From: an uncultured Gammaproteobacteria bacterium
GTDB lineage: Bacteria; Pseudomonadota; Gammaproteobacteria; Steroidobacterales; JABDMI01
DNA: 64,000 nucleotides
NCBI GenBank assembly: GCA_905479875.1
Contig: CAJQOG010000060.1
Span: 3,853-67,852 of the forward strand
Reading direction: 5' to 3'
Numbering within the stretch: position 1 is the stretch's first letter; each line of letters opens with the position of its first letter. The notes beneath the pieces are model-generated. The model saw only the letters and a list, made by a program, of their open reading frames with translations. It ran no database searches and was not told where the DNA came from. Shown here piece after piece: positions 4,504 to 56,641 of the stretch. Made by a program: the position numbers and the translations under genes.

Positions 4504-4531
4504 TTGACCTCAGAGTTTTCATGGTTAGAAT
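4504..4531 (+). promoter_or_regulatory. putative sigma70 promoter of the btuB leader
   Basis: TTGACC, 16 nt spacer, TAGAAT, placed just upstream of riboswitch helix P1. Confidence 0.4.
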
Positions 4532-4537
4532 GCACAG

Positions 4538-4790: not shown

Positions 4791-4908
4791 TTTTTTAGTC
4801 CGATCGCGGGTGGCGTATCTTGGCTGTTATTCTCTACTCACTAAAGTAGTTTATTTCGCCATACTCCTCTAGCTTTCAAACACGCAGCTAAACGTACGGG
4901 AGTTCTAC

Positions 4909-6780
4909 ATGGCGCGATACAACATTCAACAAAAACCTGCTTTATTCTTTATTCTCGCAAGCATAATGCTAAGTGCTTTTTATTCCACAGTAAGTATTCT
5001 CGCGAATGACGTGGTTGAAGAAGAAATATTAGTAACAGCCACACGATCTGCTAAATTACAAAGCGAATTGGCGATTGGTAATATCATTATTACCCGCGAA
5101 GATATTGAAAGGACTAATGCAGCTGATTTAGCTGATTTATTACGTTTTCAAGCGGGTTTAGATATAGGTCGAAATGGCGGACCTGGTCAAACCACATCAG
5201 TTTTCATACGTGGAACTGAATCAAATCATACATTAGTACTAATTAATGGCGTAAAAATGAACCCTGGCACCATTGGTGGCGCCGCAATTCAGAACATTAG
5301 CCCAGAAATTATTGAACGTATTGAAATCATTAAAGGCCCCCGCTCATCTCTCTATGGTTCTGAAGCCATTGGTGGCGTGATAAATATCATCACGCGTAAA
5401 ACTCAAGATACAGCCCTAAGCACAGAACTAGCTTTAGGCAGCTTTGGAAGCAAACAAATTACCACAAATAGTGAGTATCGCGATCAAGATAAGTTTGCTA
5501 GCTTTACACTTGATTGGAAAGATACAGATGGATTTGCAAGCCTGCGTGAGCAAACGCAAGATCGTGGACATGACAGTTTAAGTTTAAACTTACGAGCAGG
5601 CTTAAATATCCTTTCACAAGATGTTGAACTAAATCACTGGCAAACATCAGGCAATACTGAGTATTATGGTTTTGATACTAGCGCATTTACTACAGGACCC
5701 TTAGACCAAGATTTCAACAATGCTGTAACTTCTTTAAGCGTTGGGTCAACTTTATTAGAGCAATGGAAAAGTAATTTTATAATCGCTAAAGCCAATGATG
5801 CTATTAATCAAAATCAACTAGACTTTTTCTTTTTCCCTACTCCGCAAAAAGACTTAGTAGAAACTGATCGATTAAGTTTTGACTGGCAAAATTCTGTTAG
5901 TTTACAAAACGTTGAATTAACTGCTGGCGCATACTTTGAAAGGGAAAAAACTGAATCCTTATCATTTGGTAGTGCCTACAATGATAAAACTGAGTCTAAA
6001 GCCGTGTACTTTGGTGCCGACACCAAGTTGTTTGGACTTGATAGTATTATTGCAGCTCGTTATACGGAACATGAAACAGCTGGAAGTAATATCAGCTGGA
6101 ATACTGAATTTTCCTATCCAGTTAATTCAGATTTACGCCTTGGAATTACCGCTGGAACTGCATTCAGAGCGCCAGATGCTACTGATAGATTTGGATTTGG
6201 TGGTAACCCAAACTTAAAAACTGAGGAATCAACAAGCTTTAGCGCAGTACTCAATTGGAATAGCCGAGTAGGAAATATTAATTTTGAATTATTTCAAACA
6301 GACATTGATAACTTAATTGAAGCTGTAAATATTGATCCTGTAAATTTCATATTTCAAAATATCAATGTTGCTGAAAGCCAAATAAAAGGCATTGAATTAG
6401 GCCATAAAATTTTATTGAACGAATGGTCTTTCGAAACAACGGCCTTAGTTCAAAGCCCAAAAAATAAATTAGCAGATACAGACTTGCTACGCAGGGCGCG
6501 TCGTAGTTTATCGACTCATGTGGTAAGAAACTTTGACCAACTTAGCCTAGGCTTACAATTGTTAGCCAGTAGCAAACGTGTGGATATTGATGCCGTTAGC
6601 TTTGGAGCAGTAAAAAATTCAGGCTATGTGCTAACAAATCTAACTGGCTCTTATGACTTTACAAAAAATTTGTCTATGCAGGCAAAAATCGAAAACTTAT
6701 TGGATACTACCTACGAAACAGCAGCAGGCTATCAACAGGCTGAAAGACATTACTTATTAAGCCTTCGCTTAAGTTATTAA
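4909..6780 (+). CDS. btuB: TonB-dependent vitamin B12 outer-membrane receptor
   Basis: Signal peptide, TonB box (EEEILVTATR), plug-domain motifs (FIRGTESNHTLVLINGV, IEIIKGPRSSLYGSEAIGGVINIIT), and a beta-barrel ending in an aromatic residue. It is preceded by the B12 riboswitch. Confidence 0.85.
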   Translation: MARYNIQQKPALFFILASIMLSAFYSTVSILANDVVEEEILVTATRSAKLQSELAIGNIIITREDIERTNAADLADLLRFQAGLDIGRNGGPGQTTSVFIRGTESNHTLVLINGVKMNPGTIGGAAIQNISPEIIERIEIIKGPRSSLYGSEAIGGVINIITRKTQDTALSTELALGSFGSKQITTNSEYRDQDKFASFTLDWKDTDGFASLREQTQDRGHDSLSLNLRAGLNILSQDVELNHWQTSGNTEYYGFDTSAFTTGPLDQDFNNAVTSLSVGSTLLEQWKSNFIIAKANDAINQNQLDFFFFPTPQKDLVETDRLSFDWQNSVSLQNVELTAGAYFEREKTESLSFGSAYNDKTESKAVYFGADTKLFGLDSIIAARYTEHETAGSNISWNTEFSYPVNSDLRLGITAGTAFRAPDATDRFGFGGNPNLKTEESTSFSAVLNWNSRVGNINFELFQTDIDNLIEAVNIDPVNFIFQNINVAESQIKGIELGHKILLNEWSFETTALVQSPKNKLADTDLLRRARRSLSTHVVRNFDQLSLGLQLLASSKRVDIDAVSFGAVKNSGYVLTNLTGSYDFTKNLSMQAKIENLLDTTYETAAGYQQAERHYLLSLRLSY

Positions 6781-11080: not shown

Positions 11081-14000
11081 TTAGTGTTTATTTAAATGTG
11101 GCTGAATGGCTTCTAGCAACTGATCTTCACGATAAGGCTTTCCAAGGTAATCGTCTACGCCAATTTCAATTGCACGATTACGATGCTTATCACCTGTACG
11201 AGAGGTAATCATAATAATAGGTACGTTACTAATTCTTGGGTCTTGGCGCACATGCTCTGCAAGCTCATATCCATCCATACGAGGCATTTCTATATCTAAA
11301 AGAATTAAATCGGGGCTATGCTCTTGTAAAACACTCAAGGCATCTAAACCATCTCGAGCCGTCAGTACTTCCATTTTATTTCTTTCTAATAATCTCTCTG
11401 TAACACGTCTAACTGTAATGGAATCATCTACAACTAAAATTAATGGTAGAGACTCGCGCGTAACAATATTTTCAGCAACTGCAACATCTTGTAATTTAAC
11501 CCCAAGTAGTGCGTCAATATCCAAAATTACTACGATACGTCCATCACCCAAAATTGTTGCGCCAGAGATGCCTCGAATACCAGCGATTTGTGGACCAACT
11601 GGCTTGATAACCATCTCACGATTACCAATTAACTCACTAACAACTAACGCAGCATGATGATCACCGCCAGTGACCATAATCACTGACAGTTCCTGCTCGT
11701 CGGGATCAAAAGAAAAATTCGGTGAACCTAACAATTGTGCTAAATTTTTCACTGAATATTCTTGATTAGCATATTCGTAAACTGGGCTTTCTTGTGTAAG
11801 TAAATGCTGAACATTAGCCAGAGACATTTTTGCTACACCATCAACTTTATGAATAGGAATGGCGTAGTTCTCTTCTCCGGCCCTTACTAAAAGAGCATGG
11901 TTGATTGCGCGTGTAAATGGTAAACGCATTGAAAATCGTGTGAATTTTCCTGGCTCACTAATTATTTGCAGTGAACCGCCTAATTGTTTCACTTCAGATG
12001 CAACCACGTCCATACCAACACCGCGACCGGCACTCTGAGTCACCTCTGTAGCAGTTGAAAAACCGGAAGCTAAAATTAGTTGGGCTAAATCGGCATCACT
12101 TGCCTTTTGACCGTCTCTCAACATTCCAATACTTATGGCTTTTTCACGAATTTGCGTATAATTTAATCCAGCGCCATCGTCTTCTAATTCTAGAATCAAT
12201 TGAGCACCTTCACGACTTAGGCGTAACTGAACAACACCCTCAGGATCTTTTCCAGCAGCAACTCTATCTTCGGGGCTTTCGATTCCATGAATAACAGAAT
12301 TACGAATCATATGCTCAAGAGGCGCCTGCATACGCTCTATTACTTGGCGATCGATTTCGCTTTCGGCACCTTGCACATTCAGATCAACTTTTTTACTGGT
12401 CTCATTAGCAATTTGTCGCACTATCCTTGCATAGCGTGGAGCATAGCGTGCGAAAGGAATCATACGAACACGCATGAGATTGTCTTGCAAATCAGTCATC
12501 ACTCGCGACTGCTGTAAAAGTAAAGCCTCTGTATCTCTAAATTGATTTTCTAAAGAAGTTTCTAAACTTTGTAAATCGTTAACTGATTCAGCTAAGGCAC
12601 GAGAAATTTGTTGCACATTAGAATATTGATCCATTTCCAGTGGATCGAAATCATTATTATCCGATTCATCTCTATGCTGGTACAAAATGGTCGCTTCGGT
12701 TTCAATTTCCATTTTGCGTAATTGATCTTTTACGCGATTAACGGTGCGCGCCAATTCTGCTAAGTTTAAATTCGCATTACTAAGTTCTTGCTCAATTCGC
12801 GAACGGAAAATACTGACCTCACCCGCCTGATTGAGTAACACCTCTAAATTACTAGTGCTAATACGTGCAGCATCTTGTTGACGTTGCTGTATATCTCGAA
12901 CTTCTGAAACGTATTCAAAAATCGATTCTGTTGCAACGGGCTCATCGGTCAATGCGACTGAAGTAATTTCAACTTTATCCGATTCATTAGAACTAACTAC
13001 AACTTGTTCTGCAGTCTGAACTGTTTCAAGCTCAGAGCCGTCATTTTGGCCGGCAGCGAACTCTGGTTCTTCGGTTACAACACCGTCATCTAAATTGAAC
13101 TCAGACTCATCCAAAAGAGGTTGGATAACAGTGATAGATGGCATAGTCTTACTAAGCACTTCATCGGTAAACTCAAGTTCGGCAATTTCCTCAGATGACA
13201 TAGACGCTATTTTTACTGAAGCATCACCCAAGCCATCTTCTGAAGTTGAAATTAATTCTGATGCACCTTGCTCTACAGAATCTGTTAGCAATAATAAGCC
13301 TTCCGCTTCCTTACCTTCGATTAAATTCTGCATTACACTTAAGATATGCGGAGCTGATGTTGGTGGCTCTCCACGTTTCACTTCATCTAACATAGAGTGC
13401 ATATGATCTACAGCTGACTGTAAGGTTTTCTTAGCAACTTCAGACTGTTCTAGTGATTCATTTTTTAAACCCAGCATAAAGGATTCTACTTCATGCGTGA
13501 AATCACCAATACTCAATAGGCCAGCCATCCGCGCTCCACCTTTAAGGGTATGCAAATGGCGTAATAATTCAGAAATTACTTTATCACTAATGCCATCAGC
13601 ACCCCAACTGGCAACCGCAGCATCCGTCTCAGTAATAATTTCACTAGCTTCTTCTAAGAAAATATTAGTAATTTCAGAATCCACGGCCAGCATAGTTGGT
13701 GCTTGATGCTGGGTCAGTTGACTATCACTAGTTTGACTCTCAGCAACCATTAAAATATCGTCTAACTCAACCTCAAGGTCGTCCAACAAATCATCGGCAT
13801 CTATAGTTTCAAACTCTTCAAGCTCAATGGACAAGGACGAATCAATATCCGATTTACTGATTTCGGTTTTAGCCTCAATTTGTAGATCAATCTCTTCACG
13901 TAATACATGTAACTCAGCAATTAACTCAGGTGCTGCGAAAGACATTGGAATCTCTTGATTTATTACAGCAATCATATCTTCAATCTTATTTGTCACATTA

Positions 14001-16852
14001 CCAATGACATGCGCACTCTGCTCTTCTAAAGGCAATCCTTCGTCATATAGACGCTGCACGTAATGCTCTAATTCGCCTGTTATTTGCGTGATTGGTTCAA
14101 GATCGGCCATATTTGCACTGCCATGCAAGGTATGCACCGCTCTATGCATTGCACTGCTAATGCTTTTGCTAACAGATTTAGAACAAAAGTTACGTATTGT
14201 GGCAATGTGCTTTGCGGATTCTTCTGTATAAATATCGTAAAGTGGCTTTTCTAATTGGTAAGTTTTTTCAAGAACTTGCTCTGAAGTCTCTACTTCTACA
14301 ACTGTATTGTCCGATGTACTTTGGAGATCTGCGCCAAGTAATTTTTCCATCGCAGACTTATCGTCTGAGCTTATGATGGAGCGCATATCCATAATTTTCG
14401 TGTGTCCAACCGCTTCTGAGGGATTAACAAGTCCGCGCATATCTATTATTTGCGTAGCTGGCTTTTCGGAATCACTAACTGGTGCATTATCATTTTCTAC
14501 AGCATCCTGGTGCTTCAACTGCAACGGCAATGATGTACTTTCTGCAGCTTCAGCTTGTTCCACTAGTTTTTGTGAAATATACGACTCAAGCGAAAGCATT
14601 AGTTGATGAGCATCTTCTTTAGTGTCAACACCGGTTTCAAGTTGTTCAATCAAACTAGGAATACAGCTCACTGACCGATCGATTAAATGCACACCATCTG
14701 CATCCATTTTAATCGTGCCTTCCAAGACTCGGTTGATTAAGTGCTCAGCCTGCCAGGCCATTTCACTCATTCGTCTTGCGCCAACCATACGACCACTACC
14801 TTTTAAGGTATGAAAGCCTCTGCGCACAGAAACCAATGCATCACGGAGTTCATGATCACCTTTCCATGCTGAAAACTCTCGAGAAAGGCTTGTGTGAACT
14901 TCTGCAGCTTCTTCAAGAAAAATTTCGATAACTTCTGGGTCTGTTTCAAGTGACCGATCCATTACAGGATAAGCATCTGGATGGCCATTTTGAACATCGG
15001 AGTTATTTTGATTTGTCTTTTGAGTCATCGACTCAATTGCTTCAGGAGTTAATTTCGGTATCGCAACCGTGCCACTGCTTGACTCCGAAACCGTTAAAAG
15101 CTCAGTACTATTTAGATTTATTGTATTTTCACCGACAGGGCCGTCATGCTCTTTAGGTAATAGCTGTATTGGAGCTTCACGCAGAAGCTGCTCAAGACAG
15201 CTGTCAGCATTATCCAGCATATACCATGGGTCACGGCGATCTTTATTTAGTGTTTCCAAATAAAAGTCTACACTCTCGATTGCACCCGCGAGTAGTTCTA
15301 AATGTTCAGAATATGGCAGTCGTCCACTACCAATAAGAAAACGAGTTATGTAATCTTGCAAACGCTCGAGTACAACGGCTAATCTTTCTTTTTCAGCCAA
15401 CATGGTCGCTGCACGAGCTTCTTTTAAAAGTACTGGAGCGCGTGAAATTGGCTTCAAATCAGTTGGGTCACGCATAAACTGACTTATAACTTCTTTAACT
15501 CTCGCTATATTAACCTTGGTTTCTCTGAAGGTTGCCTCAAGAGCTTCTAACAAATATTTGGGTTTGTTTTTATCTTGCTTTCCGGCTAATTTATCTAACT
15601 CTTCCTCTAATCGAGATTCAACTTGAAGCAAAGAAGCAGCAATACTAATCAAGTGATTATCGGTAATTGGCTCATTACGTTCTAGTAATTGAGTCAGCTC
15701 ACGTTGTTGGTCTAAAACTCGAGCTTGTAACTCATTAAGACCTAACATACTCAAAGTGTCTGCAATTTTCTTCAGACTATCAAAACGCTGCTCTATTTGA
15801 ATGTTCTCTTTAGAACCTGTGCGATTGAAAATATCTAAAGCATCTTTTACTTTATCTAAATCTTCTCGAATAGCAGCTGATAAAGAAACCATGACCTGCG
15901 TGTCCGGCCCCGAAAGATTAGTTTGTGCTGATTCAAATTTTTCTTCTAATGGCAGGGACTCGTTTAAGCTAAAGGCTTTGCGAATTTTACTAACACGCTC
16001 ACCATTACTGGAAGCTCGCCCAATAAAATACAATAACTGGTTGATTAAACTACGGTCAGTGTTTTCTTGGAAGTGACGCTCACCATGATCTAAAATTCTT
16101 TTTGCCGCTCTATCAACTTGGCCAAACAACCGTCTGAGATCAGGGCTTGATTTCAAGCCCTGTTGCAATAAAGACTCAACCAGACCACCCGTAACCCACC
16201 AAAGTTTAAAACTACGTTCTTCTTTGGAGGCTTGTTCATACTTTTCTAGAATTACCGCTATTCTTGTTAGATGTTTTGGACCATATGGATCTTTGATCCA
16301 ACCCAATAAAGAGGTTTGAAACACGGCGCGATACTTACCAATAAGCTCACGTAAATCACCTTTTTGTGAAAGCTCAGTTAACTGAGGCAAAGTCACCGTT
16401 TTATCTGAGAGCTCATCATTTTTTACATCCATTAAATACAGCGTATCCTCAGAAAGCGGCTTGGCTTGACGTGCTGCACGCAACTCTTGCATAACTGGCA
16501 GTAAAGCCACCGAGTTTTCTTGGCCCTCTGACTCAATGGTTTTATGAAAAAATGCCGGTAAAGTTACAACACCTCTACTAATCGCCTCAAGAGAAAGCTG
16601 TGGACTTTTTGCTCTGCGCGATAGCAATTCATCAACATTAAGTAGCATTTCAGAAGCCAGCAAAGCCGAAGCGTTAAAATCGATAATTTCGAAAGCGCCT
16701 TTTGCGGTTTTAAGTAGCTCGCCAACCATACTTAAGTGTTTATCATTTTTGGTTTCAATAGCAAGCTCTAAAGCTGAACGAATATCGTTTAGCGTTAGCT
16801 TCATTTCATCCGAAATGACAAATAAAGTATCTCTAAATGCGGCTTCTAACAT
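11081..16852 (-). CDS. chpA: ChpA-type hybrid histidine kinase of the Pil-Chp chemosensory system (multi-Hpt CheA with C-terminal receiver)
   Basis: 1923 aa. Three canonical Hpt motifs (FHTLKGSGRMVG, VHTLHGSANMA, LHTLKGGARMAG) plus degenerate N-terminal Hpt-like segments. HATPase region (LEDDGAGL, GRGVGMDVV), CheW-like domain, and receiver (LILVVDDS...LLDIEMPRMDG...GKP). Confidence 0.9.
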   Translation of the reverse strand: MLEAAFRDTLFVISDEMKLTLNDIRSALELAIETKNDKHLSMVGELLKTAKGAFEIIDFNASALLASEMLLNVDELLSRRAKSPQLSLEAISRGVVTLPAFFHKTIESEGQENSVALLPVMQELRAARQAKPLSEDTLYLMDVKNDELSDKTVTLPQLTELSQKGDLRELIGKYRAVFQTSLLGWIKDPYGPKHLTRIAVILEKYEQASKEERSFKLWWVTGGLVESLLQQGLKSSPDLRRLFGQVDRAAKRILDHGERHFQENTDRSLINQLLYFIGRASSNGERVSKIRKAFSLNESLPLEEKFESAQTNLSGPDTQVMVSLSAAIREDLDKVKDALDIFNRTGSKENIQIEQRFDSLKKIADTLSMLGLNELQARVLDQQRELTQLLERNEPITDNHLISIAASLLQVESRLEEELDKLAGKQDKNKPKYLLEALEATFRETKVNIARVKEVISQFMRDPTDLKPISRAPVLLKEARAATMLAEKERLAVVLERLQDYITRFLIGSGRLPYSEHLELLAGAIESVDFYLETLNKDRRDPWYMLDNADSCLEQLLREAPIQLLPKEHDGPVGENTINLNSTELLTVSESSSGTVAIPKLTPEAIESMTQKTNQNNSDVQNGHPDAYPVMDRSLETDPEVIEIFLEEAAEVHTSLSREFSAWKGDHELRDALVSVRRGFHTLKGSGRMVGARRMSEMAWQAEHLINRVLEGTIKMDADGVHLIDRSVSCIPSLIEQLETGVDTKEDAHQLMLSLESYISQKLVEQAEAAESTSLPLQLKHQDAVENDNAPVSDSEKPATQIIDMRGLVNPSEAVGHTKIMDMRSIISSDDKSAMEKLLGADLQSTSDNTVVEVETSEQVLEKTYQLEKPLYDIYTEESAKHIATIRNFCSKSVSKSISSAMHRAVHTLHGSANMADLEPITQITGELEHYVQRLYDEGLPLEEQSAHVIGNVTNKIEDMIAVINQEIPMSFAAPELIAELHVLREEIDLQIEAKTEISKSDIDSSLSIELEEFETIDADDLLDDLEVELDDILMVAESQTSDSQLTQHQAPTMLAVDSEITNIFLEEASEIITETDAAVASWGADGISDKVISELLRHLHTLKGGARMAGLLSIGDFTHEVESFMLGLKNESLEQSEVAKKTLQSAVDHMHSMLDEVKRGEPPTSAPHILSVMQNLIEGKEAEGLLLLTDSVEQGASELISTSEDGLGDASVKIASMSSEEIAELEFTDEVLSKTMPSITVIQPLLDESEFNLDDGVVTEEPEFAAGQNDGSELETVQTAEQVVVSSNESDKVEITSVALTDEPVATESIFEYVSEVRDIQQRQQDAARISTSNLEVLLNQAGEVSIFRSRIEQELSNANLNLAELARTVNRVKDQLRKMEIETEATILYQHRDESDNNDFDPLEMDQYSNVQQISRALAESVNDLQSLETSLENQFRDTEALLLQQSRVMTDLQDNLMRVRMIPFARYAPRYARIVRQIANETSKKVDLNVQGAESEIDRQVIERMQAPLEHMIRNSVIHGIESPEDRVAAGKDPEGVVQLRLSREGAQLILELEDDGAGLNYTQIREKAISIGMLRDGQKASDADLAQLILASGFSTATEVTQSAGRGVGMDVVASEVKQLGGSLQIISEPGKFTRFSMRLPFTRAINHALLVRAGEENYAIPIHKVDGVAKMSLANVQHLLTQESPVYEYANQEYSVKNLAQLLGSPNFSFDPDEQELSVIMVTGGDHHAALVVSELIGNREMVIKPVGPQIAGIRGISGATILGDGRIVVILDIDALLGVKLQDVAVAENIVTRESLPLILVVDDSITVRRVTERLLERNKMEVLTARDGLDALSVLQEHSPDLILLDIEMPRMDGYELAEHVRQDPRISNVPIIMITSRTGDKHRNRAIEIGVDDYLGKPYREDQLLEAIQPHLNKH

Positions 16853-16897
16853 TGTTTTAATTGCACTCTTATTATTACTTTTCTGGCAGTGTTATTA

Positions 16898-18175
16898 CTA
16901 GATACTTTCTTCTTCAGAAAGCGTTTCATAATCATCATCCGATAATTCAGATTCAGGCAGGGTAAATCCTGCTACAGACTCACGTAACTCTTTCGCCAGG
17001 TCGGCAAGCTTAGATACGTTAGTAGAAGTTACTGAGGCTCCACCAGCGGTTTGTGTTGAATACTTTCGAAGAACTTCCATTGTTTTCATTACACTGCCGG
17101 CTTCTACTGATTGAGTTTTAGAAGCTTCTGAAATACCGGAAACCAACACTGAAATTTGTTTTGATACAGATTGAATTTCTTCCAGAGCTTCACCAGCATT
17201 CTCGGCAAGTTTTGCACCACCAACTACGTTAGCGGTTGATTCTTCCATAGATGCTACGGCTTCATTTGTATCCGTTTGAATAGTTCTTACTAAAGTTTCA
17301 ATCTGTCGAGTCGCATCAGTCGCTCGCTCAGCTAATCGCTGTACTTCATCGGCAACAACAGCAAAACCTCGCCCAGCCTCGCCCGCCATGGAAGCCTGTA
17401 TGGAGGCATTTAGAGCAAGGATATTTGTTTGCTCAGCAATGTCATTGATTAATCCAACAATGTTTCCAATTTCTTGAGAACTTTCACCTAAACGTTTAAT
17501 TCTCTTTGACGTTTCTTGAATTGTTTCACGAATTGACGCCATACCTTCAATAGTACGGCGTACTGCAATACTACCTTTATCGGCGATTTCTACAGATTGC
17601 TGAGCAACCTTAGAAGATGTTTCAGCATTACTGGTTACCCGACGAATGGATTCAGAAATTGAGTTGATCGCTTCATTAGCTTGAATCACGTGCTCATTCT
17701 GACTTGAACTTACATCACTCAACTTATTGGCTGTAATCTGTGTTTGCTGAGCAGAGCGGTTTACTTGAGTCGCTGTTTGGTCAATCGTTGTTACTAAATC
17801 CCGAAGAGCATCTACCGCATAGTTAATGGAGTCAGCGATAGAGCCGGTAACATCTTCAGTTACTGATGCCTCAACAGTTAAATCACCATCCGCTAAACTA
17901 CCTAACTCATCCATTAAACGTAAAATACCTTCTTGGTCACGCTCAGCTTTTTCCATGGCAAGTTCTGCAGAGGCACGCAGACCAGATGTTTTTGCGTAGG
18001 CTGTTAACATACCTAAAAAACATAGGCCTGCAACTAATACCAAGGCTTCATTAAAGAAATCTAATGTTGTGTCTAAGTTTAAAAAATTCACTACGCCCAG
18101 GGCAAGCAGCAGGAGTAAACCCAAGATACCTAACGTTGGTATTTGTTTGGGACTTAAATTACGTTGCTTTGCCAT
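16898..18175 (-). CDS. pilJ: PilJ-like methyl-accepting chemotaxis protein lacking a periplasmic domain
   Basis: Two N-terminal TM helices ~11 aa apart, a [25 protein letters not shown] linker, and the conserved MCP hairpin [36 protein letters not shown]. Confidence 0.8.
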
Positions 18176-18247
18176 AACTCTTCCTCTAGCAACATTTTTT
18201 GTTGCTCATTCTTAATTAATGTTTAAATATGTTTAATTTTTATAGTC

Positions 18248-18808
18248 TTAATTTATGGCGCTTGACTGCATAAATTTCTGACTCTCAACTAACTTTCGTA
18301 AACCTATTACTGGCCACGCCTGTTCGTCTCGACTGCATTCCCCTAGTAAAAAAGCTTTCAAACCAAATTTGCTTTCCACCGAACAAGTTTTACTGAGTTC
18401 AGACTCACTAAAACGCCTAAACCCTAAAACCTCATCTACAACTAAAGCTGCTGGTATACGTTCATGATTCACAACCAACATTCGCTCTTGCCCAGTGGTT
18501 TCGTGCCGATCATTTCCAAGAAATTTTGCAAAATCAACCACAGGGATAAGTTGGCTACGTAAATTTGCCAGGCCTTTAATCCACGCTTGCGCTCCAGGTA
18601 CTCGTGTACTTGGGATCAAGGCCAAAACCTCACGAACATCACTGCGCGATGTCATTAAAATTTCATCACCTATACGGAATGCAATACCTACCCATTCTTT
18701 TGCTTCTCCCCCACCAGAGTAAGATAAATTAACTGCACGGCAATGCCGCTCAAGCTCTTTAAGAAGATGAAAAGGGGTTTCACGATATGTATATAAATTA
18801 TCTATCAT
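18248..18808 (-). CDS. pilI: PilI-like CheW-domain protein
   Basis: CheW-like domain, positioned between pilH and pilJ. Confidence 0.7.
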   Translation of the reverse strand: MIDNLYTYRETPFHLLKELERHCRAVNLSYSGGGEAKEWVGIAFRIGDEILMTSRSDVREVLALIPSTRVPGAQAWIKGLANLRSQLIPVVDFAKFLGNDRHETTGQERMLVVNHERIPAALVVDEVLGFRRFSESELSKTCSVESKFGLKAFLLGECSRDEQAWPVIGLRKLVESQKFMQSSAIN

Positions 18809-18828
18809 AATTTTTTTAAATTGCTTTA

Positions 18829-19191
18829 CTATTTAAGCACTTCTTTGATTTTTTGAATTAGCTCTTTTTCTTTAACTGGTTTTACAATGTAATCTGAAGC
18901 GCCTTGTCGCATGCCCCAAATACGATCAGTTTCTTGACTTTTTGTAGTAACCATAATCACGGGAATGCCTGATGTGGCATCATTACGTGAGAGTTTACGG
19001 GTTGCTTGAAAGCCATTAACTCCTGGCATTACAACATCCATTAAGATTAAATCTGGTTTTTCATTAGTTGCTAATTCAACTCCAGACTTTCCGTCGCTTG
19101 CTACCAGCACGGTAAAACCATTACTTTCTAAAAAACCTTTAAGAATATGCACCTCAGTTGGTGAGTCATCTACTATTAATACAGTGGTCAT
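18829..19191 (-). CDS. pilH: PilH-like CheY-type response regulator
   Basis: Stand-alone receiver of 120 aa (VLIVDDS, LILMDVVMPG, KP). Confidence 0.85.
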   Translation of the reverse strand: MTTVLIVDDSPTEVHILKGFLESNGFTVLVASDGKSGVELATNEKPDLILMDVVMPGVNGFQATRKLSRNDATSGIPVIMVTTKSQETDRIWGMRQGASDYIVKPVKEKELIQKIKEVLK

Positions 19192-25169: not shown

Positions 25170-26066
25170 ATGACAAACTCACAAAACAACAAAGCACATC
25201 GTAATCAAATTTTTCTTGAAGAAGCCACAGTTGTCAGTCAGGAAAAATGGCCAGGAGAGCAATTCATATTACGTGTCCATGCTCCTGAAACAGCACTGCG
25301 CGCTAAGGCAGGATCTTTCGCTCATTTAACTTGTGACCCAGCCGTTCCTATGCGAAGACCATTATCAATAATGCGTACCTCGCCTGAAGAAGGATGGGTA
25401 GATTTTCTTTATAAAATACACGGACATGGATTACATCATCTTAGTACACGAGATAAGGGTGATCAGATAAGTGTATTAGGACCTATTGGAAAAGGCTTTA
25501 CACTAAACAAGAATAAACCTCGACCTTTACTAATTGGCGGCGGAGTCGGAATTCCTCCCATGGTTTTTCTTGCAGAAAGCATTAAGGATGATAGCAATAA
25601 CAACTGGCAAACATTTTGCATAATGGGTTCGGAAATTCCTTTTCCGTTTGAAGTTATACAATCAAAATTACCAGCAAATGGGTTAGAGGATAACATCAAC
25701 GGCTCCCACCCACTGCTTGAAGCTTGGGGCATTCCTACACGCCTTGCATCATGGCAAGGCTATGAAAAATGTCATAAAGGTTTTGTAACTGATGTTGCTG
25801 ACATGTATCTCAGTCAATTAAGCGTAGGTGAATTACAAGAAATTGAAATATTCAGTTGTGGTCCTACGCCAATGCTAAAAGCAGTTGCAGCTTTAGCCAA
25901 AAAATATGCAGTCGCATGCCAAGTTTCTTTAGAAGAATACATGGCCTGTGCAGTTGGTGGTTGTGCAGGTTGTACAGTACCAGTACAAACATCCGATGGC
26001 ATTGAAATGCAGCGCGTATGTGTGGATGGTCCAGTATTTGATGCTTATGCAGTTTATCCACAATAA
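25170..26066 (+). CDS. PyrK-like dihydroorotate dehydrogenase electron-transfer subunit (FNR-like FAD/NAD domain plus C-terminal 2Fe-2S)
   Basis: RPLSIM flavin motif, GGGVGIPP nucleotide motif, and C-terminal cluster MACAVGGCAGCTVP...RVCVDGPVF. Confidence 0.75.
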   Translation: MTNSQNNKAHRNQIFLEEATVVSQEKWPGEQFILRVHAPETALRAKAGSFAHLTCDPAVPMRRPLSIMRTSPEEGWVDFLYKIHGHGLHHLSTRDKGDQISVLGPIGKGFTLNKNKPRPLLIGGGVGIPPMVFLAESIKDDSNNNWQTFCIMGSEIPFPFEVIQSKLPANGLEDNINGSHPLLEAWGIPTRLASWQGYEKCHKGFVTDVADMYLSQLSVGELQEIEIFSCGPTPMLKAVAALAKKYAVACQVSLEEYMACAVGGCAGCTVPVQTSDGIEMQRVCVDGPVFDAYAVYPQ

Positions 26067-26146: not shown

Positions 26147-27202
26147 TCAACCAAAGTTTATACGCGCCTCTAAATCAGCTTTTGAATCAGCATTAATTAG
26201 TGCTTGCTCCATACTCACTTTGCCTGAATTATAGAGATTAAATAATGCCGTATCATAACTCTGCATACCGCCCTCGGCCGTGGATCTTAAGCCTTCTTTT
26301 ACACCTGATATATCACCTTTATGAATCATGTCGCGAATATGAGGGGTATTAATTAACAACTCTACAGCTGCGCAGCGTTTTCCATCTTTCATAATAACTA
26401 AGCGTTGAGAAATAATCGCGTTTAGGTATTGTGACAAATCAGTAAAAATCTGATGATGACGCTCTTGCGGGAACATATTAATAATACGATCTAAGGTTTC
26501 TGCTGCATTATTTGCATGCAATGTGGCTACCGTGAGATGACCTGTGCCAGCTAAGGTTAAAGCAGACTCCATGGTTTCAGCATCACGAATTTCGCCAATT
26601 AATATTACATCCGGAGCTTCGCGAACCGCACTACGTAGTGCGTTATGATAACTGTGCGTATCACTGCCAAGTTCTCGCTGATTCACAATTGAGCGCTTAC
26701 TTTTATGCAAAAACTCAATCGGGTCTTCAATCGTTAAAATATGGCTTGAGGTTTTTTCGTTACGACTATCAATCATCGCAGCCAAGGTTGTAGATTTACC
26801 TGATCCAGTAGCTCCAACCATCAGTACTAACCCGCGTTTATCCATAATCAGATCGCCAACTTTTTCTGGTAAATCCAAGTCTTCTAATCTCGGCGTTTCT
26901 GGTGAGATGAAACGTAAAACCAAAGCGATACTACTGCGTTGATGAAAAACATTTACTCGAAAACGTCCTAAACCTGATTCAGAGATAGCAAAATCAACCT
27001 CAAGGTTTTCAATCAAAGCTTCTTTTTCTGATTGAGTCATGATTGACATAGCTGCAGCTTTAACTGATGCCACATCCAATATCGTGTTGTTTACTGCACG
27101 AATCACCCCATCTATCTTAATTTTAATCGGTGAAAATGGGCTTAGAAATAAATCGGATGCTTTTTTCTCGGCCATTATTTTCAGCAAGGGTTTAATATTC
27201 AT
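26147..27202 (-). CDS. PilT/PilU-family type IV pilus retraction ATPase, second PilU-like paralogue
   Basis: Walker A GATGSGKST, Asp box, Walker B, His box (ATLHANNAAETLDRI). The C-terminus is of PilU type and lacks AIRNLIRE. Confidence 0.8.
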   Translation of the reverse strand: MNIKPLLKIMAEKKASDLFLSPFSPIKIKIDGVIRAVNNTILDVASVKAAAMSIMTQSEKEALIENLEVDFAISESGLGRFRVNVFHQRSSIALVLRFISPETPRLEDLDLPEKVGDLIMDKRGLVLMVGATGSGKSTTLAAMIDSRNEKTSSHILTIEDPIEFLHKSKRSIVNQRELGSDTHSYHNALRSAVREAPDVILIGEIRDAETMESALTLAGTGHLTVATLHANNAAETLDRIINMFPQERHHQIFTDLSQYLNAIISQRLVIMKDGKRCAAVELLINTPHIRDMIHKGDISGVKEGLRSTAEGGMQSYDTALFNLYNSGKVSMEQALINADSKADLEARINFG

Positions 27203-27240
27203 GCAGTGTTTTCCTAAAAGTATATTTTGAGTCTAAAAAA

Positions 27241-28392
27241 TTAAAATCTATCGTCTGGATCATTAAGTAACTCTAAGCTAGTTGATGTTTCAGCAACTTT
27301 GTCGGAGCGTTTACTATCTAACTTAACTCTCAAACGTAATTCATTTCGCGAATCGGCATTTCGCAATGCATCCTCATAGCTAATACTGCCATCTTCATAC
27401 AAATCAAATAAGGCCTGATCAAAAGTTTGCATACCCATGCGCGTCGACTTCGCCATAGTTTCTTTAAGCAAGTTTACTTCGCCTTTAAAAATCAAATCAG
27501 CAACTAGTGGAGAGTGAAGTAATATTTCCATTGCGGCCAATCTGCCTTTCCCAGAGGCCCTTGGTATTAAACGCTGTGAAATAAGTGCTTTTAAATTTAA
27601 AGATAAATCCATTAACAATTGATCACGTCGCTCCTCAGGGAAAAAGTTAATAATACGATCAATAGCCTGGTTCGAGTTGTTCGCATGTAAAGTTGCCAAA
27701 CAGAGATGTCCAGTTTCAGCAAATTGAACCGCATATTCCATAGTTTCTCTACTACGAATTTCTCCCATTAAAATAACATCTGGAGCTTGACGTAATGTAT
27801 TCATCAATGCCACTTCCCACGAGTCGGTATCTACTCCAACTTCCCGTTGTGTCATTACACAGTTTTGATGTCTGTGTACAAATTCAATTGGATCTTCGAT
27901 GGTAATGATATGGCCATTTGAATTTTTATTTCTGTGGTCAAGCATTGCTGCAAGTGAGGTTGATTTACCAGAACCTGTAGCACCAACAATAATGACTAGA
28001 CCACGTTTTTGCAGAACCACATCTTTTAATACAGGAGGTAGTCCTAATTTATCAAACTCAGGAATGTCTGTTGTAATTGTACGTAATACAGCGCCCATGT
28101 GGCTTTGTTGTACAAAAGCATTAACCCTGAAACGGCCAATTCCACGCGGGCTAATAGCAAAGTTACACTCTTTTGTACTATCAAATGCCTTGGTTTGTTT
28201 GTCGTTCATAATTGAACGCACAATCACGCTAGCTTGCAATGGTGTTAATGGCTTATCCGATACTGGACGTACTTCACCATCTACCTTGAAAGCTGGCGGA
28301 AAACCTGCTGTGATAAATAAATCAGAACCATTTTTTGCTACCATTGCACGCAATAAATCTTGCATGAATTTTATTGCTTGATCTCTTTCCAT
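27241..28392 (-). CDS. pilU: type IV pilus ATPase PilU
   Basis: GATGSGKST, TLHANNSNQAIDRIINFFP, and a PilU-type C-terminus. Directly downstream of pilT. Confidence 0.85.
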   Translation of the reverse strand: MERDQAIKFMQDLLRAMVAKNGSDLFITAGFPPAFKVDGEVRPVSDKPLTPLQASVIVRSIMNDKQTKAFDSTKECNFAISPRGIGRFRVNAFVQQSHMGAVLRTITTDIPEFDKLGLPPVLKDVVLQKRGLVIIVGATGSGKSTSLAAMLDHRNKNSNGHIITIEDPIEFVHRHQNCVMTQREVGVDTDSWEVALMNTLRQAPDVILMGEIRSRETMEYAVQFAETGHLCLATLHANNSNQAIDRIINFFPEERRDQLLMDLSLNLKALISQRLIPRASGKGRLAAMEILLHSPLVADLIFKGEVNLLKETMAKSTRMGMQTFDQALFDLYEDGSISYEDALRNADSRNELRLRVKLDSKRSDKVAETSTSLELLNDPDDRF

Positions 28393-28447
28393 TTCTTATA
28401 AACTCTTATATTTAAAACATTTAATCGAATTACTTGTACATTGCTCT

Positions 28448-29488
28448 TTAGAACAATTCTTTTTGCTTAGCGCGATAACGTGCATCTTGACGAGATATTT
28501 GACCTCGTTTGACCATATTTTGTAAGCACTGATCAAGAGTTTGCATGCCCTCAGATTGACCAGTCTGGATGGCCGAATACATTTGTGCAATTTTACCTTC
28601 ACGAATAAGATTTCGAATCGCTGCTGTACCAATCATAATTTCATGCGCAGCAATTCTACCTCCACCAATTTTTTTAAGTAAGGTTTGTGAAATAACCGCA
28701 CGTAATGACTCAGAGAGCATAGATCTAACCATCTCCTTTTCTGCGGCAGGAAAAACATCCACAATACGATCAATAGTTTTTGCCGCTGAGGTTGTGTGCA
28801 AAGTGCCGAATACTAAATGACCAGTTTCTGCTGCAGTAAGCGCTAGGCGTATCGTTTCTAAATCACGCATCTCACCAACTAAAATCACATCGGGATCTTC
28901 TCGTAAAGCCGAGCGTAATGCCTCGTTGAACCCAAGGGTATCGCGATGTACTTCACGTTGGTTAATTAGGCATTTTTTACTTTCATGCACAAATTCAATT
29001 GGATCTTCAATGGTTAAAATATGATGCGGCTTGGATTCATTAATATAATTAACCATAGCGGCTAATGTTGTAGATTTGCCCGAACCTGTAGGCCCCGTCA
29101 CTAAAACGATACCGCGAGGCTGATCTGCAATGTCCATAAATGACGCAGGAGCAGCGATATCTTCAAGGGTAAGCACTTTTGAAGGAATCGTACGGAAGAC
29201 TGCTGAAGCTCCTCGGTTTTGGTTAAACGCATTCACACGAAAACGAGCAAGGTCTGGTATTTCGAAAGAAAAATCCGTTTCTAAAAACTCTTCATAATCT
29301 TTGCGTTGCTTGTCATTCATGATGTCATAAATCATGGTATGCACATCTTTATGGGATAATGAATCCATATTAAGACGTTTTATATCACCGTCAACACGAA
29401 TCATTGGCGGTAAACCACCTGCTAAATGTAAATCAGATGCATTGTTTTTCACACTAAATGTTAAAAGCTGTGCAATATCAACCGGCAT
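28448..29488 (-). CDS. pilT: type IV pilus twitching motility ATPase PilT
   Basis: ASDLHLAGGLPPMIRVDG, GPTGSGKSTT, TLHTTSAAKTIDRIVDVFP, and the PilT-specific AIRNLIREGK. Confidence 0.9.
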   Translation of the reverse strand: MPVDIAQLLTFSVKNNASDLHLAGGLPPMIRVDGDIKRLNMDSLSHKDVHTMIYDIMNDKQRKDYEEFLETDFSFEIPDLARFRVNAFNQNRGASAVFRTIPSKVLTLEDIAAPASFMDIADQPRGIVLVTGPTGSGKSTTLAAMVNYINESKPHHILTIEDPIEFVHESKKCLINQREVHRDTLGFNEALRSALREDPDVILVGEMRDLETIRLALTAAETGHLVFGTLHTTSAAKTIDRIVDVFPAAEKEMVRSMLSESLRAVISQTLLKKIGGGRIAAHEIMIGTAAIRNLIREGKIAQMYSAIQTGQSEGMQTLDQCLQNMVKRGQISRQDARYRAKQKELF

Positions 29489-46342: not shown

Positions 46343-46418
<76 letters not shown>

Positions 46419-53286: not shown

Positions 53287-53849
53287 AACATAAACCGCAT
53301 CTTACTCAACAAGCGCATAGCCTCATCCAGGAGCACTTCAAATCTCTTGATATGACCCCTAGACATGCCATTGATGCAACCTGCGGCAATGGGTTTGACA
53401 CTTTGTTTTTAGCCGAATTAGTTAATGAAAATGTGTACGCCTTTGATATTCAAGATATAGCGATTAAAAATACTCAAGAAATATTGCAAGGAAAAAACTT
53501 AGACCATAAAGTTAAATTAATAAAATCTGGGCATGAGAACCTTACAAATTATATTAAAAAACCAATTGACATCATCATGTTCAATTTAGGTTACTTGCCG
53601 CAAGCCGATAAGACTATCACCACAATCACTAATACAAGCATCACAGCTATAGAATATGCCTTGTCTTTACTTTCAAACCATGGCTTGTTAAGTATTCTTT
53701 GCTATCCAGGACACCTCGAAGGGAAAAAAGAAACCATGGCGACAAATGCTCTAGTTGAAAACCTGCCTGAAAAATTTAAGGTTAATAAGCATCAGTCGCA
53801 TTTCCAAAACTTTAAATCACCTATACTTTATCTAGTTAGTAAAATTTAG
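53277..53849 (+). CDS. YtqB/MnmM-family class I SAM-dependent methyltransferase
   Basis: DATCGNGFDTLFLAELV, VYAFDIQ, MFNLGYLPQADKTITT, YPGHLEGKKE. This matches my recollection of the 'putative rRNA methylase' (PF06962) family that includes B. subtilis YtqB. Confidence 0.75.
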   Translation: MAIEHKPHLTQQAHSLIQEHFKSLDMTPRHAIDATCGNGFDTLFLAELVNENVYAFDIQDIAIKNTQEILQGKNLDHKVKLIKSGHENLTNYIKKPIDIIMFNLGYLPQADKTITTITNTSITAIEYALSLLSNHGLLSILCYPGHLEGKKETMATNALVENLPEKFKVNKHQSHFQNFKSPILYLVSKI

Positions 53850-54892
53850 TCCTTACCTTTAAAATCAATAAAATTAGTTACAAATTTTTGAGCTATTTGA
53901 TTACCATTTTCTGCAGCAATTTCAATCCATCTTTCGCCCTTGCGTTTACTACTCCTACATTGCGTATCTTGAATTAACCTCAAACCAATTATTAACTGTG
54001 CCTGATGATAGCCATTTTTCGCCGACAACTCGAGTAACTCATTGCGTTTTTTATAATCAATTTTAGCTTTAAACAAACCTGGTACCGCAGTAGCTAATAA
54101 ATATTGAGCCCTCGAATTATCAGCATTTGCCATTTCAATAAATTTCGCGACAGAGGCTTTGCTATGTTCGGCTTGAACCTTAGACCATTTCTTTGTATGA
54201 AAAGTAATATCGTATGTTGCATAACGTAATGGAACTTGATTTGGAAGAGTTTCAAACAGTGGGTATTCAAATTTCTTTACTGCACGCATTGTTTCTACGG
54301 CATAACCTAAGCCTCGTGGAAACTCATCTAACAAATCTACGTCTACAACCTTGCCCTCAGCATTAATACTGTAACCAACGTTTATATAACCGTTGACTTG
54401 TTTCCTTCTGGCTGTGCTAGGGGCTTTGGGCTTAATTTGCTTAACGGCTGTGTATACTGGTTCTTTAGAGGTGAGATAGTCCTCTCGACTGCAAACAAAG
54501 GGTTGTAACTTACTTGTGTAACTTTGCGAACCATACTGCTCTTCTAAGTTCAAAAAAACCGCTTCAGATTCACTAGCTTGCGTGATTGATAATTTGTTTT
54601 TAGCATTAACTGTAGAATATTGCTCATTAAAACTATTAGCTATCTTCATCCATGCGTAAGCTTGCTCATAGCTTTGTTCAACATACACACCCTGAGAATA
54701 CATAAGGCCAATATTGTAAATTGCCTCTGCATTACCAACTGCAGCTAACTGCATAAACTCTCTGTAGGCAGATTCATGATCACCATTTGCATAATTATCC
54801 ATAGCACCAACAAAATCAGCATAAGAACTACTATTCACAGAGTTAACTAAAAAAACTGCAAAAACTATTAAAACTGAGTAAATGTATTTCAT
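53846..54892 (-). CDS. secreted Sel1-repeat protein with an internal TonB_C-like domain
   Basis: Signal peptide. Sel1-like repeats (GNAEAIYNIGLMYSQGVYVEQSYEQAYAWMKIA; GYHQAQLIIGLRL; ENGNQIAQ). The central segment INVGYSINAEGKVVDVDLLDEFP is TonB_C-like. Confidence 0.6.
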   Translation of the reverse strand: MKYIYSVLIVFAVFLVNSVNSSSYADFVGAMDNYANGDHESAYREFMQLAAVGNAEAIYNIGLMYSQGVYVEQSYEQAYAWMKIANSFNEQYSTVNAKNKLSITQASESEAVFLNLEEQYGSQSYTSKLQPFVCSREDYLTSKEPVYTAVKQIKPKAPSTARRKQVNGYINVGYSINAEGKVVDVDLLDEFPRGLGYAVETMRAVKKFEYPLFETLPNQVPLRYATYDITFHTKKWSKVQAEHSKASVAKFIEMANADNSRAQYLLATAVPGLFKAKIDYKKRNELLELSAKNGYHQAQLIIGLRLIQDTQCRSSKRKGERWIEIAAENGNQIAQKFVTNFIDFKGKD

Positions 54893-54945
54893 GATTGCCT
54901 TTTAATATTAACTTTGTTTAACAACATTCTACTTTAAAAATGCAT

Positions 54946-55197
54946 AAAAAAACCCGAACAAAATTAATGTTCGGGTTTTGCCATCCTGGCAATAGTGTAG
55001 GCGATCTAAAATCAATCCTTTGAAAAATCAAACGAGTTGCGTTCTCGTTATAGTGAGCTAACGGTTGATACAATAAGATTCATCCTAAATCATTCATCAA
55101 CAAAGCAATCTAATCCATCAATGAGCTCCCTGCCCAAATTATTGCTTGTTTACTATCCTTAAGCTCTTTGCTATCCCTAAACATCCTTGTTGAAGCC
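54946..55197 (-). ncRNA. candidate Csr/Rsm-family (CsrB/RsmY/RsmZ-like) CsrA-sequestering sRNA; 5' end approximate
   Basis: Eight GGA motifs in ~250 nt of ORF-free sequence, several in hairpin loops (ACA-AGGA-UGU, GAUU-UAGGAUG-AAUC, UCAA-AGGA-UUGA, UUGCC-AGGAU-GGCAA). Terminal strong rho-independent terminator (stem 54950-54960 / 54968-54978, U7). GacA-box-like palindrome upstream. Confidence 0.6.
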
Positions 55198-55247
55198 ATA
55201 TTGCTAGAAAGGCGGATAGTTGTCTGTCAGACATGTACTACATGGTC

Positions 55248-55265
55248 TGTAGGAGACTTCCTACA
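55248..55265. promoter_or_regulatory. GacA/UvrY-box-like palindrome TGTAGG-N6-CCTACA
   Basis: Core of a perfect 10-bp inverted repeat (55245-55268). It differs from the TGTAAG-N6-CTTACA consensus by one symmetric substitution and lies ~55-70 nt upstream of the first GGA hairpin of the candidate sRNA. Confidence 0.45.
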
Positions 55266-55285
55266 GACATTTAAGTTACTGAAAA

Positions 55286-56641
55286 TCAACGAAAAGAAAC
55301 ATATAAACCTGTTTCTTCATCTTCAGAGTTATAGGCTAAGCCAATTCCAATTTGTACACCAACAAACCATGGAACTCTCCAGCGCACCCCAGCACCAGCA
55401 GACCAGCCTAAATTTTTGCGATTACGAGTACCGCTTTCAAAGTAAATGTCGTCTACTTCAGCAAACCACTCAGCACGTAAACTAGGATAGGCCGATAAAC
55501 GTGTGTGCTTAAACGGTTTAAATGTAAATGGGGTAAGGTACGCGGCTTTTAGGTAATAGTAACGATCACCTTCAAAATCATCATAACTAACACCACGTAA
55601 ACGTGCAGCTTGGCTATTTTGGAACGGCACAAAATCTTCATACGCACCATTACTCCAACCCAAACCTGCTTGCATCTCAACTTCACTGTGCTCACGCAAA
55701 CCAACAGCGTGATGCCAGTTGGCGAATAGTTCCTGCGTTAATGGGTTTCTATTACCACGTGTTGCAAGGCTGGGTTCAACACGGTATGTAAAATCAAACC
55801 CTTCAAGACTATAGCGCCGATCATGCAGTTGATTGTAATGCGCTTGAAACTCAATACCTAAATGACTTTGGTCTGCGTCATCAATTCCACTAATCGCTGG
55901 ATTTGTACTTTTCCATGAGCGGTGACTTAAGGCTGAACCAATACGCCAACCTTTTTGTCGTTGGCTCTTATGAAACCAGCGAGAAATGCCTACATTTGAC
56001 GAGCGAAAAATCTCATTAAAAGGGGTATCTGTGGCAACACCATCAAAGGCTCTTGTTTCTAAATCGATGTAAGTAAACCCAATTTGTCCGTCGTAATCAG
56101 AATTTTTTATTTGTGGGCTAGAAAATGAAATTGCAGCTTTGCTCTCGCTCTCCCTGATATCTGAATCATAGGTTTTTTTCCGAATATTTAAACGACCCTT
56201 TTGATTCAGGCCACCTATATTGCTCCAGTTGCCACGGATACCGTAATTTAAACTTCCGGATTCGGTGCTTGCTACGTATGGGATAACTAGAAGATAACGC
56301 TTTTCAAGCATCGTAAAATTAATGCTTACCGAGTTTTCACTTTGCTGGCTTTCAGCGTCTACAGATTTAAATAAACTTAAGTCTTCAATAGCTTGACGAG
56401 CAGCTTCGAGATTTTTGCAGGTATGAATATCACCGACCTGCAAATCAATTTGTCTTTTAACAATACTCAATCGGGTCGTATTTAAACCCACATAGTCGAT
56501 GGAGTTAATCCGACTGCCTTCACCTACACATTCTAGCGAACCAGCAAATAGCGATTTACAGGTAAACAATACAAGAATGGAAAAACTTATTCGTAAGATA
56601 AAGTTAATCTCACAAACCAAAGGCCGTGCGAATGCCATCAA
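55286..56641 (-). CDS. Omp85-superfamily outer-membrane protein (single POTRA plus surface-antigen beta-barrel)
   Basis: Signal peptide, POTRA-like segment (IDYVGLNTTRLSIVKRQIDLQVGD...EAARQAIEDLSLFKSVD), and alternating beta-strand pattern to the C-terminus. The 5' end overlaps marC by 32 nt. Confidence 0.6.
   Translation of the reverse strand: MMAFARPLVCEINFILRISFSILVLFTCKSLFAGSLECVGEGSRINSIDYVGLNTTRLSIVKRQIDLQVGDIHTCKNLEAARQAIEDLSLFKSVDAESQQSENSVSINFTMLEKRYLLVIPYVASTESGSLNYGIRGNWSNIGGLNQKGRLNIRKKTYDSDIRESESKAAISFSSPQIKNSDYDGQIGFTYIDLETRAFDGVATDTPFNEIFRSSNVGISRWFHKSQRQKGWRIGSALSHRSWKSTNPAISGIDDADQSHLGIEFQAHYNQLHDRRYSLEGFDFTYRVEPSLATRGNRNPLTQELFANWHHAVGLREHSEVEMQAGLGWSNGAYEDFVPFQNSQAARLRGVSYDDFEGDRYYYLKAAYLTPFTFKPFKHTRLSAYPSLRAEWFAEVDDIYFESGTRNRKNLGWSAGAGVRWRVPWFVGVQIGIGLAYNSEDEETGLYVSFR

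Follow-up and report, generated by a model that had tools for sequence, protein, structure and literature searches.

The minus strand of a 64,000-nucleotide (nt) stretch from an uncultured Gammaproteobacteria bacterium (GenBank contig CAJQOG010000060.1, positions 3,853–67,852; the whole stretch is called the window below) has a 393-nt gap between a gene for an Omp85/POTRA-family outer-membrane protein (OMP) and a Sel1-repeat gene. The gap, at 54893–55285, holds a predicted small RNA (sRNA) with eight A(N)GGA motifs, a promoter-like region, an 18-bp palindrome and a rho-independent terminator. Sequence comparison suggests that the element is an independently transcribed sRNA of ~246 nt in the CsrB/CsrC/RsmX-Y-Z functional class, with a probability of about 0.75. 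A first-pass annotation of the same DNA had put forward a Csr/Rsm-type sRNA candidate here. That candidate is supported by the five sequence features used to recognize such RNAs, by conservation and by covariation.

GGA content and conservation of the locus

Nine GGA are found on the minus strand of 54946–55270, eight in the predicted RNA and one in the palindrome, and two on the plus strand. Segments of 325 nt across the 64 kb contain a mean of 2.6 GGA, and just 0.4% of them contain at least nine. AGGAT occurs five times on the minus strand of 54946–55270 versus 0.2 expected. The predicted RNA contains eight GGA and no TCC. The count of eight GGA within ~250 nt made in the first pass is correct, and all eight belong to A(N)GGA motifs, of which 0.9 would be expected (p = 5.5e-6, Poisson). 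These motifs are at RNA positions 6, 16, 34, 63, 76, 107, 174 and 206, and neighbouring GGA are separated by 10–67 nt. The raw GGA count is unspecific, as coding stretches elsewhere in the window reach 8–10 per 250 nt. The A(N)GGA density of the element is the maximum among 250-nt segments on both strands of the 64 kb (8 versus a mean of 0.91, standard deviation 0.98). The second-highest density, seven per 250 nt at 25241–25490 (+), was rejected as an sRNA and is a coding coincidence. It sits within a gene whose product has a dihydroorotate dehydrogenase B Fe-S cluster-binding domain.

The gap has only short open reading frames (ORFs), two of them 31 and 51 codons long, and the orthologues conserve none of them, which bears out the first-pass view that no credible ORF is present. 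No ORF common to the lineages described below was found in the element, and alignment indels are mostly 1–2 nt. Judged by the alignment, the element demonstrably lacks coding potential.

Contigs carrying 13 OMP homologues (99–58% identity) were compared, and orthologues were found by exact-protein matching. They represent eight lineages: the window with L001, L002 and L022; L010; L008; L021; L011-13; L017; L014-16; and L018/19. A profile search of genome and metagenome contig collections with the OMP alignment gave no more than three loci, of which one was truncated and one unrelated. The element lies directly downstream of the OMP gene in all eight lineages, with OMP identities of 84% to 58% in the seven others, and this adjacency persists through >40% divergence of the OMP protein. 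The gene order MarC, OMP, gap, rRNA methylase/DAO/TrmB is preserved. The alignment of orthologous regions proposed in the first pass revealed that the GGA loops and the palindrome are conserved in the eight lineages. In L020, whose OMP is 78% identical, the contig ends 133 nt past the OMP gene (4330–4462) and that segment has no palindrome or GGA; the element may be further downstream or missing there.

Only the window lineage and L008 have the Sel1 gene. It is absent in L010, L011-13, L017 and L021, and its position is taken by a 133-aa ORF plus Usp in L014, by other genes in L014-16 and by a glyoxalase gene in L018. From gene order, the Sel1 gene is a variable insertion downstream of the element. 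Lineages lacking Sel1 still have the element, there beside a convergent gene, and so it is not a Sel1 leader.

The predicted RNAs of all eight lineages have 5–10 GGA, every one in A(N)GGA context, and 0–2 TCC. Enrichment of A(N)GGA in the seven other lineages has p values from 3e-3 to 2e-7. Unpaired probabilities were calculated from thermodynamic ensembles. In the window RNA, GGA have an unpaired probability of 0.53 versus 0.40 for other bases and 0.36 for shuffles. Across lineages the GGA values are 0.53–0.80 versus ~0.40 for other bases and 0.36–0.46 for dinucleotide shuffles, and 0–7% of shuffles per lineage match the observed GGA value.

Structure of the predicted RNA

Features of the locus are listed in Table 1. 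Hairpins were placed by hand and their arms chosen manually, so that pairing is partly by construction. The hand-placed helices are present in all lineages, often with differing sequence. Four of the GGA hairpins had been described in the first pass, and each was recovered at exactly the same coordinates. The strong U7 terminator reported to abut the last of them was recovered as well.

Table 1. Coordinates and basis of the features at the sRNA locus (window positions)
Feature	Position	Strand	Basis or remark
Sel1-repeat gene	53846-54892	-	3' flank of gap
Rho-independent terminator, 10-bp G+C-rich stem, 9-nt loop, U7 tail	54946-54978	-	sequence, alignment
Predicted sRNA, ~246 nt, eight A(N)GGA	54946-55191	-	enrichment, unpaired GGA, conservation
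Last GGA hairpin UUGCC-AGGAU-GGCAA, abuts terminator	54978-54992	-	alignment
Conserved single-stranded UUAGAUC(G/A)CCUACAC, no GGA	54995-55009	-	UAGAUC.CCU nearly invariant
Hairpin UCAA-AGGA-UUGA	55012-55023	-	alignment
GGA-less hairpin ACGAG-AACGCAA-CUCGU, lineage-variable	55032-55048	-	alignment
Long hairpin, outer stem GUUGAUG/UAUCAAC, inner stem GAUU/AAUC, apical loop UAGGAUG (55091-55077)	55064-55101	-	covariation
Central three-way domain, 7-bp stem AAGCAAU/AUUGCUU around two GGA hairpins	55103-55147	-	covariation
GGA hairpin UUGA-UGGA-UUAG	55121-55110	-	conserved; missed in the first pass
GGA hairpin UGGGC-AGGGA-GCUCA	55136-55122	-	conserved; missed in the first pass
5' hairpin ACA-AGGA-UGU	55181-55190	-	ACAAGGAUGU, 7 nt past -10-like hexamer
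-10-like hexamer CAATAT	55198-55203	-	alignment
Conserved block CTGACAGACAA including -35-like CAGACA (55226-55221)	55220-55230	-	near-invariant across lineages
Extra half-site-like TGTAGTACA, 5 bp downstream of palindrome	55234-55242	-	alignment
Candidate GacA/UvrY-box-like upstream activating sequence TGTAGG-AAGTCT-CCTACA	55248-55265		shuffles, conservation, 6-6-6 geometry
Omp85/POTRA-family outer-membrane protein gene	55286-56641	-	5' flank of gap

Six of the eight lineages keep the 5' motif ACA(A)GGAUGU, and L010 and L014 have ACAAGGAAGU and ACAGGACGU, respectively; the GGA is present in all. The consensus for CsrA binding obtained by SELEX (systematic evolution of ligands by exponential enrichment) is reported to be RUACARGGAUGU (Dubey et al. 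2005), and ACAAGGAUGU is its core. The 5' hairpin is followed by two single-stranded A(G/A)GGAUAG motifs and the central domain, whose outer stem pairs 55147–55141 with 55109–55103. Five of the seven pairs in this outer stem carry compensatory changes, and pairing across it reaches 98.6%; L014 has GGGUAG/CUACCC in its place and L018 has GGCAUU/AAUGCC. The outer stem of the long hairpin has compensatory changes at four of seven pairs, and its AGGAUG loop is invariant across lineages.

At the site of the GGA-less hairpin, L008, L011 and L021 have a different but similarly shaped hairpin, GUAUG...CAUAU, and a hairpin is missing there in L014, L017 and L018. In seven of the eight lineages the position of UCAA-AGGA-UUGA is taken by a short hairpin whose loop contains (A/U)GGA, and L017 has a hairpin without GGA. 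The window, L010, L014 and L018 retain the last GGA hairpin, as does L017, where the arms have changed in a compensatory way to UAGCA/UGCUA. The terminator stem is preserved via compensatory changes in L014 and L018. In L010 (4694/4693) and L017 (4124/4127), which have no Sel1 gene, the convergent rRNA-methylase gene ends directly against the terminator, which, judging from this layout, may be shared and bidirectional. The conserved UUAGAUC(G/A)CCUACAC block sits just 5' of the last GGA hairpin. In L017 the block is reduced to UUAGCUUA and the second GGA motif (UAGGGA) is also absent. This joint loss hints at long-range pairing or at a separate function of the block, such as decay control or a base-pairing seed.

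RNAalifold on a plain MAFFT alignment found four helices only, because distant sequences were out of register in that alignment. A covariance model of the central 90 nt with five helices was seeded with the six closer lineages only, and it found the unseeded distant lineages L018 (E = 4e-4) and L014 (E = 0.03). It found no second copy of the element in the window. In the covariance-model alignment, 94.7% of cells pair versus 30–47% with partners slid 1–3 columns, a percentage that is inflated because the model fits the alignment to the structure. Compensatory double changes occur at 15 of 27 pairs versus 0–3 in slid controls, and none of 500 shuffles reached the observed pairing or compensation values. 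The compensatory counts and the recovery of unseeded orthologues are stronger evidence than the pairing percentage. Three of the GGA loops are borne by stems with covariation support.

Palindrome and promoter region

The perfect 10-bp inverted repeat described in the first pass was confirmed at 55245–55268, as was its core, TGTAGG-N6-CCTACA. The palindrome centre is ~65 nt upstream of the predicted RNA start. The exact core occurs in none of 100 shuffles of the window, and each orthologous locus has one copy with no other in the ~164 kb compared. No second copy of the palindrome or the RNA was found in the window or the orthologous loci. The consensus GacA/UvrY box is TGTAAG-N6-CTTACA (PMC4682653). 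The core agrees with it at 10 of 12 specified positions and shares its 6-6-6 geometry.

Nine aligned sequences all have GTAGG and CCTACA, and the sole change in the 12 core positions is found in L018, where the first base is C instead of T, uncompensated. The N6 spacers across lineages are AAGTCT, AAGCAT, AAGCGT, AAGTGT, ATATGT, GGCTGT and ACGTCC. In all lineages the first ACA(A)GGA lies 64–66 nt from the palindrome centre, though the intervening sequence has diverged. The palindrome is ~10–25 nt from the OMP stop codon in the closer lineages and ~80–86 nt from it in L014 and L018. The palindrome resembles a protein-binding site, not an RNA hairpin, because its arms are invariant, its spacer is variable and its distance to the RNA is fixed. 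The alignment thus supports its behaviour as a protein-binding upstream activating sequence (UAS).

Six of the eight lineages have TGTAG or TGTAA 4–5 bp past the inverted repeat; the corresponding bases are AGTAG in L008 and TGTCC in L017. In Escherichia coli and Salmonella, TGTAGGAGA is located 5 bp downstream of the csrB inverted repeat (Zere et al., PMC4682653). The -35-like CAGACA and the -10-like CAATAT are separated by a 17-nt spacer. The -10-like hexamer is TAATAT, CATAAT or TACTAT in relatives and ends 6–7 nt ahead of ACA(A)GGA in every lineage. Transcription is predicted to start near 55191.

Assignment, alternatives and known systems

Kulkarni et al. (2006) described five features, reported to be shared by all known CsrA-regulating sRNAs: an intergenic location, a high density of AGGA/ARGGA, GGA placed in loops or free regions, a rho-independent terminator, and a conserved UvrY/GacA-type site upstream (PMC1488887). 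The element is intergenic, in a 393-nt gap with no conserved ORF. It concentrates eight A(N)GGA on one strand in ~246 nt and ends in a 3' rho-independent terminator (54978–54946, 10-bp stem and U7). Its GGA are in loops or free regions (unpaired probability 0.53–0.80), and a conserved 18-bp UvrY/GacA-type site with a variant half-site is located upstream.

A GacA/UvrY-type response regulator would bind the TGTAGG-N6-CCTACA palindrome, centred ~65 bp upstream, and the bound regulator would activate the weak sigma-70 promoter. The transcript would present its eight A(N)GGA motifs mostly in hairpin loops or single-stranded stretches, and the terminator would fix its 3' end. These motifs could together bind several CsrA dimers and titrate CsrA from its mRNA targets. 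GGA spacing of 10–67 nt suits bridging by CsrA dimers, and eight sites would hold roughly four of them.

Several observations weigh against this assignment, in addition to the inflated pairing percentage. Rfam models of Csr/Rsm RNAs (CsrB, CsrC, RsmX, RsmY and PrrB_RsmZ; clan CL00106) have no match at the gathering threshold, and none at E<=10 in the window or L014. The first-pass annotation had warned that covariance models may miss the RNA, and for the window the search bore this out. The lone exception is L018, where PrrB_RsmZ reaches 11.8 bits (E = 1.6), which is not significant against a gathering score of 44. Matches at E<=10 to MicC, NsiR1 and anti-hemB in the window and two distant orthologues were rejected as terminator-driven noise. 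By tblastn, csrA and gacA/uvrY were not found in the 64-kb window, where only a CheY-like receiver domain was detected, and csrA and gacA were not found in the ~10 kb past one window end on L022. To our knowledge, CsrA is near-universal in Gammaproteobacteria. The last-hairpin GGA is GAA or UAA in L008, L011 and L021, and L017 has lost two GGA sites. Both promoter hexamers, -35 and -10, match weakly and escaped a consensus scan; weak hexamers are typical of activator-dependent promoters. The palindrome is a box variant with one symmetric A-to-G change per half-site, a substitution already pointed out in the first pass, and in the window it starts ~17 nt past the OMP stop codon and could be an mRNA 3' hairpin. 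In favour of the box reading, TGTAGG half-sites are on record in recognized GacA/UvrY contexts, namely at E. coli csrB (PMC4682653) and in Marinomonas mediterranea, where TGTAGGGGAATTCTTACA upstream of csrA1 has a TGTAGG half-site in a GacA-like box (PMC8523701). A functional UAS can be far more degenerate, as in TATAGCGAAACGCTTACA of Pseudomonas brassicacearum rsmX (PMC7911923). Text matches in the literature for TGTAGG together with GacA were limited to primer tables.

The proximity to the OMP stop codon, the ability to form a 10-bp hairpin, the deviation of one position per half-site from TGTAAG-N6-CTTACA and the failure to find gacA in the 64-kb window are also what would be seen if the element were a CsrA sponge whose palindrome is not a GacA box. 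The palindrome would then either stabilize or end the OMP mRNA as a hairpin or be bound by some unrelated dimeric regulator, and the sRNA would be constitutive, otherwise controlled, or partly derived from read-through and processing of the OMP transcript. We consider this unlikely, though it is the chief competing reading and touches the regulatory step only. An mRNA 3' hairpin is expected to preserve pairing over sequence and to track the stop codon, but the core arms have a single, uncompensated change in eight lineages whereas 15 of 27 pairs in the RNA stems are compensatory, and it is the distance to the RNA start that is fixed while the distance to the OMP stop varies. No U-tract was found 3' of the palindrome on the sense strand in the window. 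The geometry and the extra half-site 5 bp downstream also parallel E. coli csrB (PMC4682653).

Tight synteny with the OMP gene in eight lineages, and the GGA-less single-stranded UAGAUC(R)CCUAC block as a possible seed region, would fit a base-pairing sRNA of the Hfq/ProQ type or one derived from the 3' untranslated region (UTR) of the Omp85 gene, with GGA incidental or serving another RNA-binding protein. This is very improbable, since the exclusive A(N)GGA context (8/8), the strand bias and the loop placement kept over deep divergence are otherwise hard to explain and indicate selection for CsrA-type sites. Also counting against it are ACAAGGAUGU at the 5' end, identical to the core of the CsrA SELEX consensus, and the conservation of independent promoter elements. 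A cis-acting 5' leader or riboswitch of the Sel1 gene, suggested by its position directly upstream on the same strand in the window, and a small-protein gene, suggested by the 31- and 51-codon ORFs, are barely credible and poorly supported: comparative data contradict both, with a strong terminator between the element and Sel1, retention of the element beside a convergent gene in L010, L011, L017 and L021 without Sel1, no Rfam riboswitch match to the element, no ORF common to the lineages and indels mostly of 1–2 nt.

A CsrA-titrating sRNA under a GacA/UvrY-type regulator is thus the favoured reading. Since no Rfam Csr/Rsm model matches it, the comparisons support a new sequence family within the CsrB/RsmZ functional class. 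A further proposal is a long shot: that GacA/UvrY specificity has shifted to TGTAGG in this clade, that the sRNA is coupled to the Omp85-family gene and that UAGAUC(R)CCUAC has a second function. If true, the sRNA would come, for example, from both its own promoter and read-through of the OMP mRNA, linking outer-membrane protein export to Csr control, and the block would serve an additional role, in base pairing or decay control.

The host appears to be an uncultured, deeply branching gammaproteobacterium, because close relatives of the window MutY are metagenomic only and the best named matches have ~50% identity. The named matches include Thiomicrorhabdus, Thiosulfativibrio, Alteromonas and Shewanella. 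The window has a G+C content of ~38%. By exact-protein matching, coastal marine metagenome scaffolds of the SOLA time series carry the locus. Elsewhere in the window, a tRNA gene (72.5 bits) is located at 46346–46418 (-), between a 237-aa ORF and mutY. A cobalamin riboswitch (77.5 bits) at 4524–4798 (+) is upstream of a 623-aa ORF at 4909–6780 (+), which from its position is probably a TonB-dependent B12 receptor. A Chp-type chemosensory cluster within 11081–19191 and 26147–29488 encodes a 1923-aa ChpA-like Hpt/kinase/CheW/receiver protein, a methyl-accepting chemotaxis protein, CheW and a CheY-like receiver. Three consecutive PilT/PilU-family ATPase genes are near the cluster, and this gene content points to a twitching-motility lifestyle.

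The regulator class is known, and understanding of how the Csr system functions is unchanged. The analysis yields an alignment of a Csr/Rsm-type RNA beyond Rfam 15, together with its predicted structure and promoter signature. These would enable annotation of the Gac-Csr cascade in metagenome-assembled genomes of an uncultured coastal-marine gammaproteobacterial clade, a search for paralogues and other GacA targets by the TGTAGG-N6-CCTACA signature, and reading of the regulatory state of the clade from metatranscriptomes.

CsrC is close in length and site number to the ~246 nt and ~8 sites of the predicted RNA. CsrB and CsrC of E. coli and Salmonella (RF00018, RF00084) are likewise intergenic and have many A(N)GGA in hairpin loops, a first GGA a few nt from the 5' end and a terminal GGA hairpin beside a rho-independent terminator. 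Upstream of csrB is an 18-bp 6-6-6 palindrome with an extra TGTAG-type half-site 5 bp past it (PMC4682653). CsrB and CsrC differ in having no detectable sequence or covariance-model similarity to the element and in a half-site of TGTGAG or TGTAAG versus TGTAGG here. The E. coli csrB palindrome is centred at about -183, versus ~65 bp upstream here (PMC4682653).

Pseudomonas RsmX, RsmY and RsmZ (RF02144, RF00195, RF00166) likewise combine a promoter-proximal palindrome of the GacA-box type and a weak -35 with GGA loops and a terminator, and the proposed mechanism, titration, is the same. They are about half as long and their helices are arranged otherwise, whereas the predicted RNA has a central three-way domain. 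Shewanella CsrB1/2, Marinomonas mediterranea CsrB/C and Vibrio CsrB1-4, predicted or validated CsrB/CsrC homologues in marine Gammaproteobacteria, were recognized by the same five sequence features. These marine RNAs differ in having canonical TGTAAG-N6-CTTACA boxes, cultured hosts and demonstrated BarA/UvrY dependence; here both half-sites are of the TGTAGG type in all lineages and the host is known from metagenomes only. Marinomonas CsrB/C (PMC8523701) and Shewanella CsrB1/2 were identified by the same features and later confirmed experimentally.

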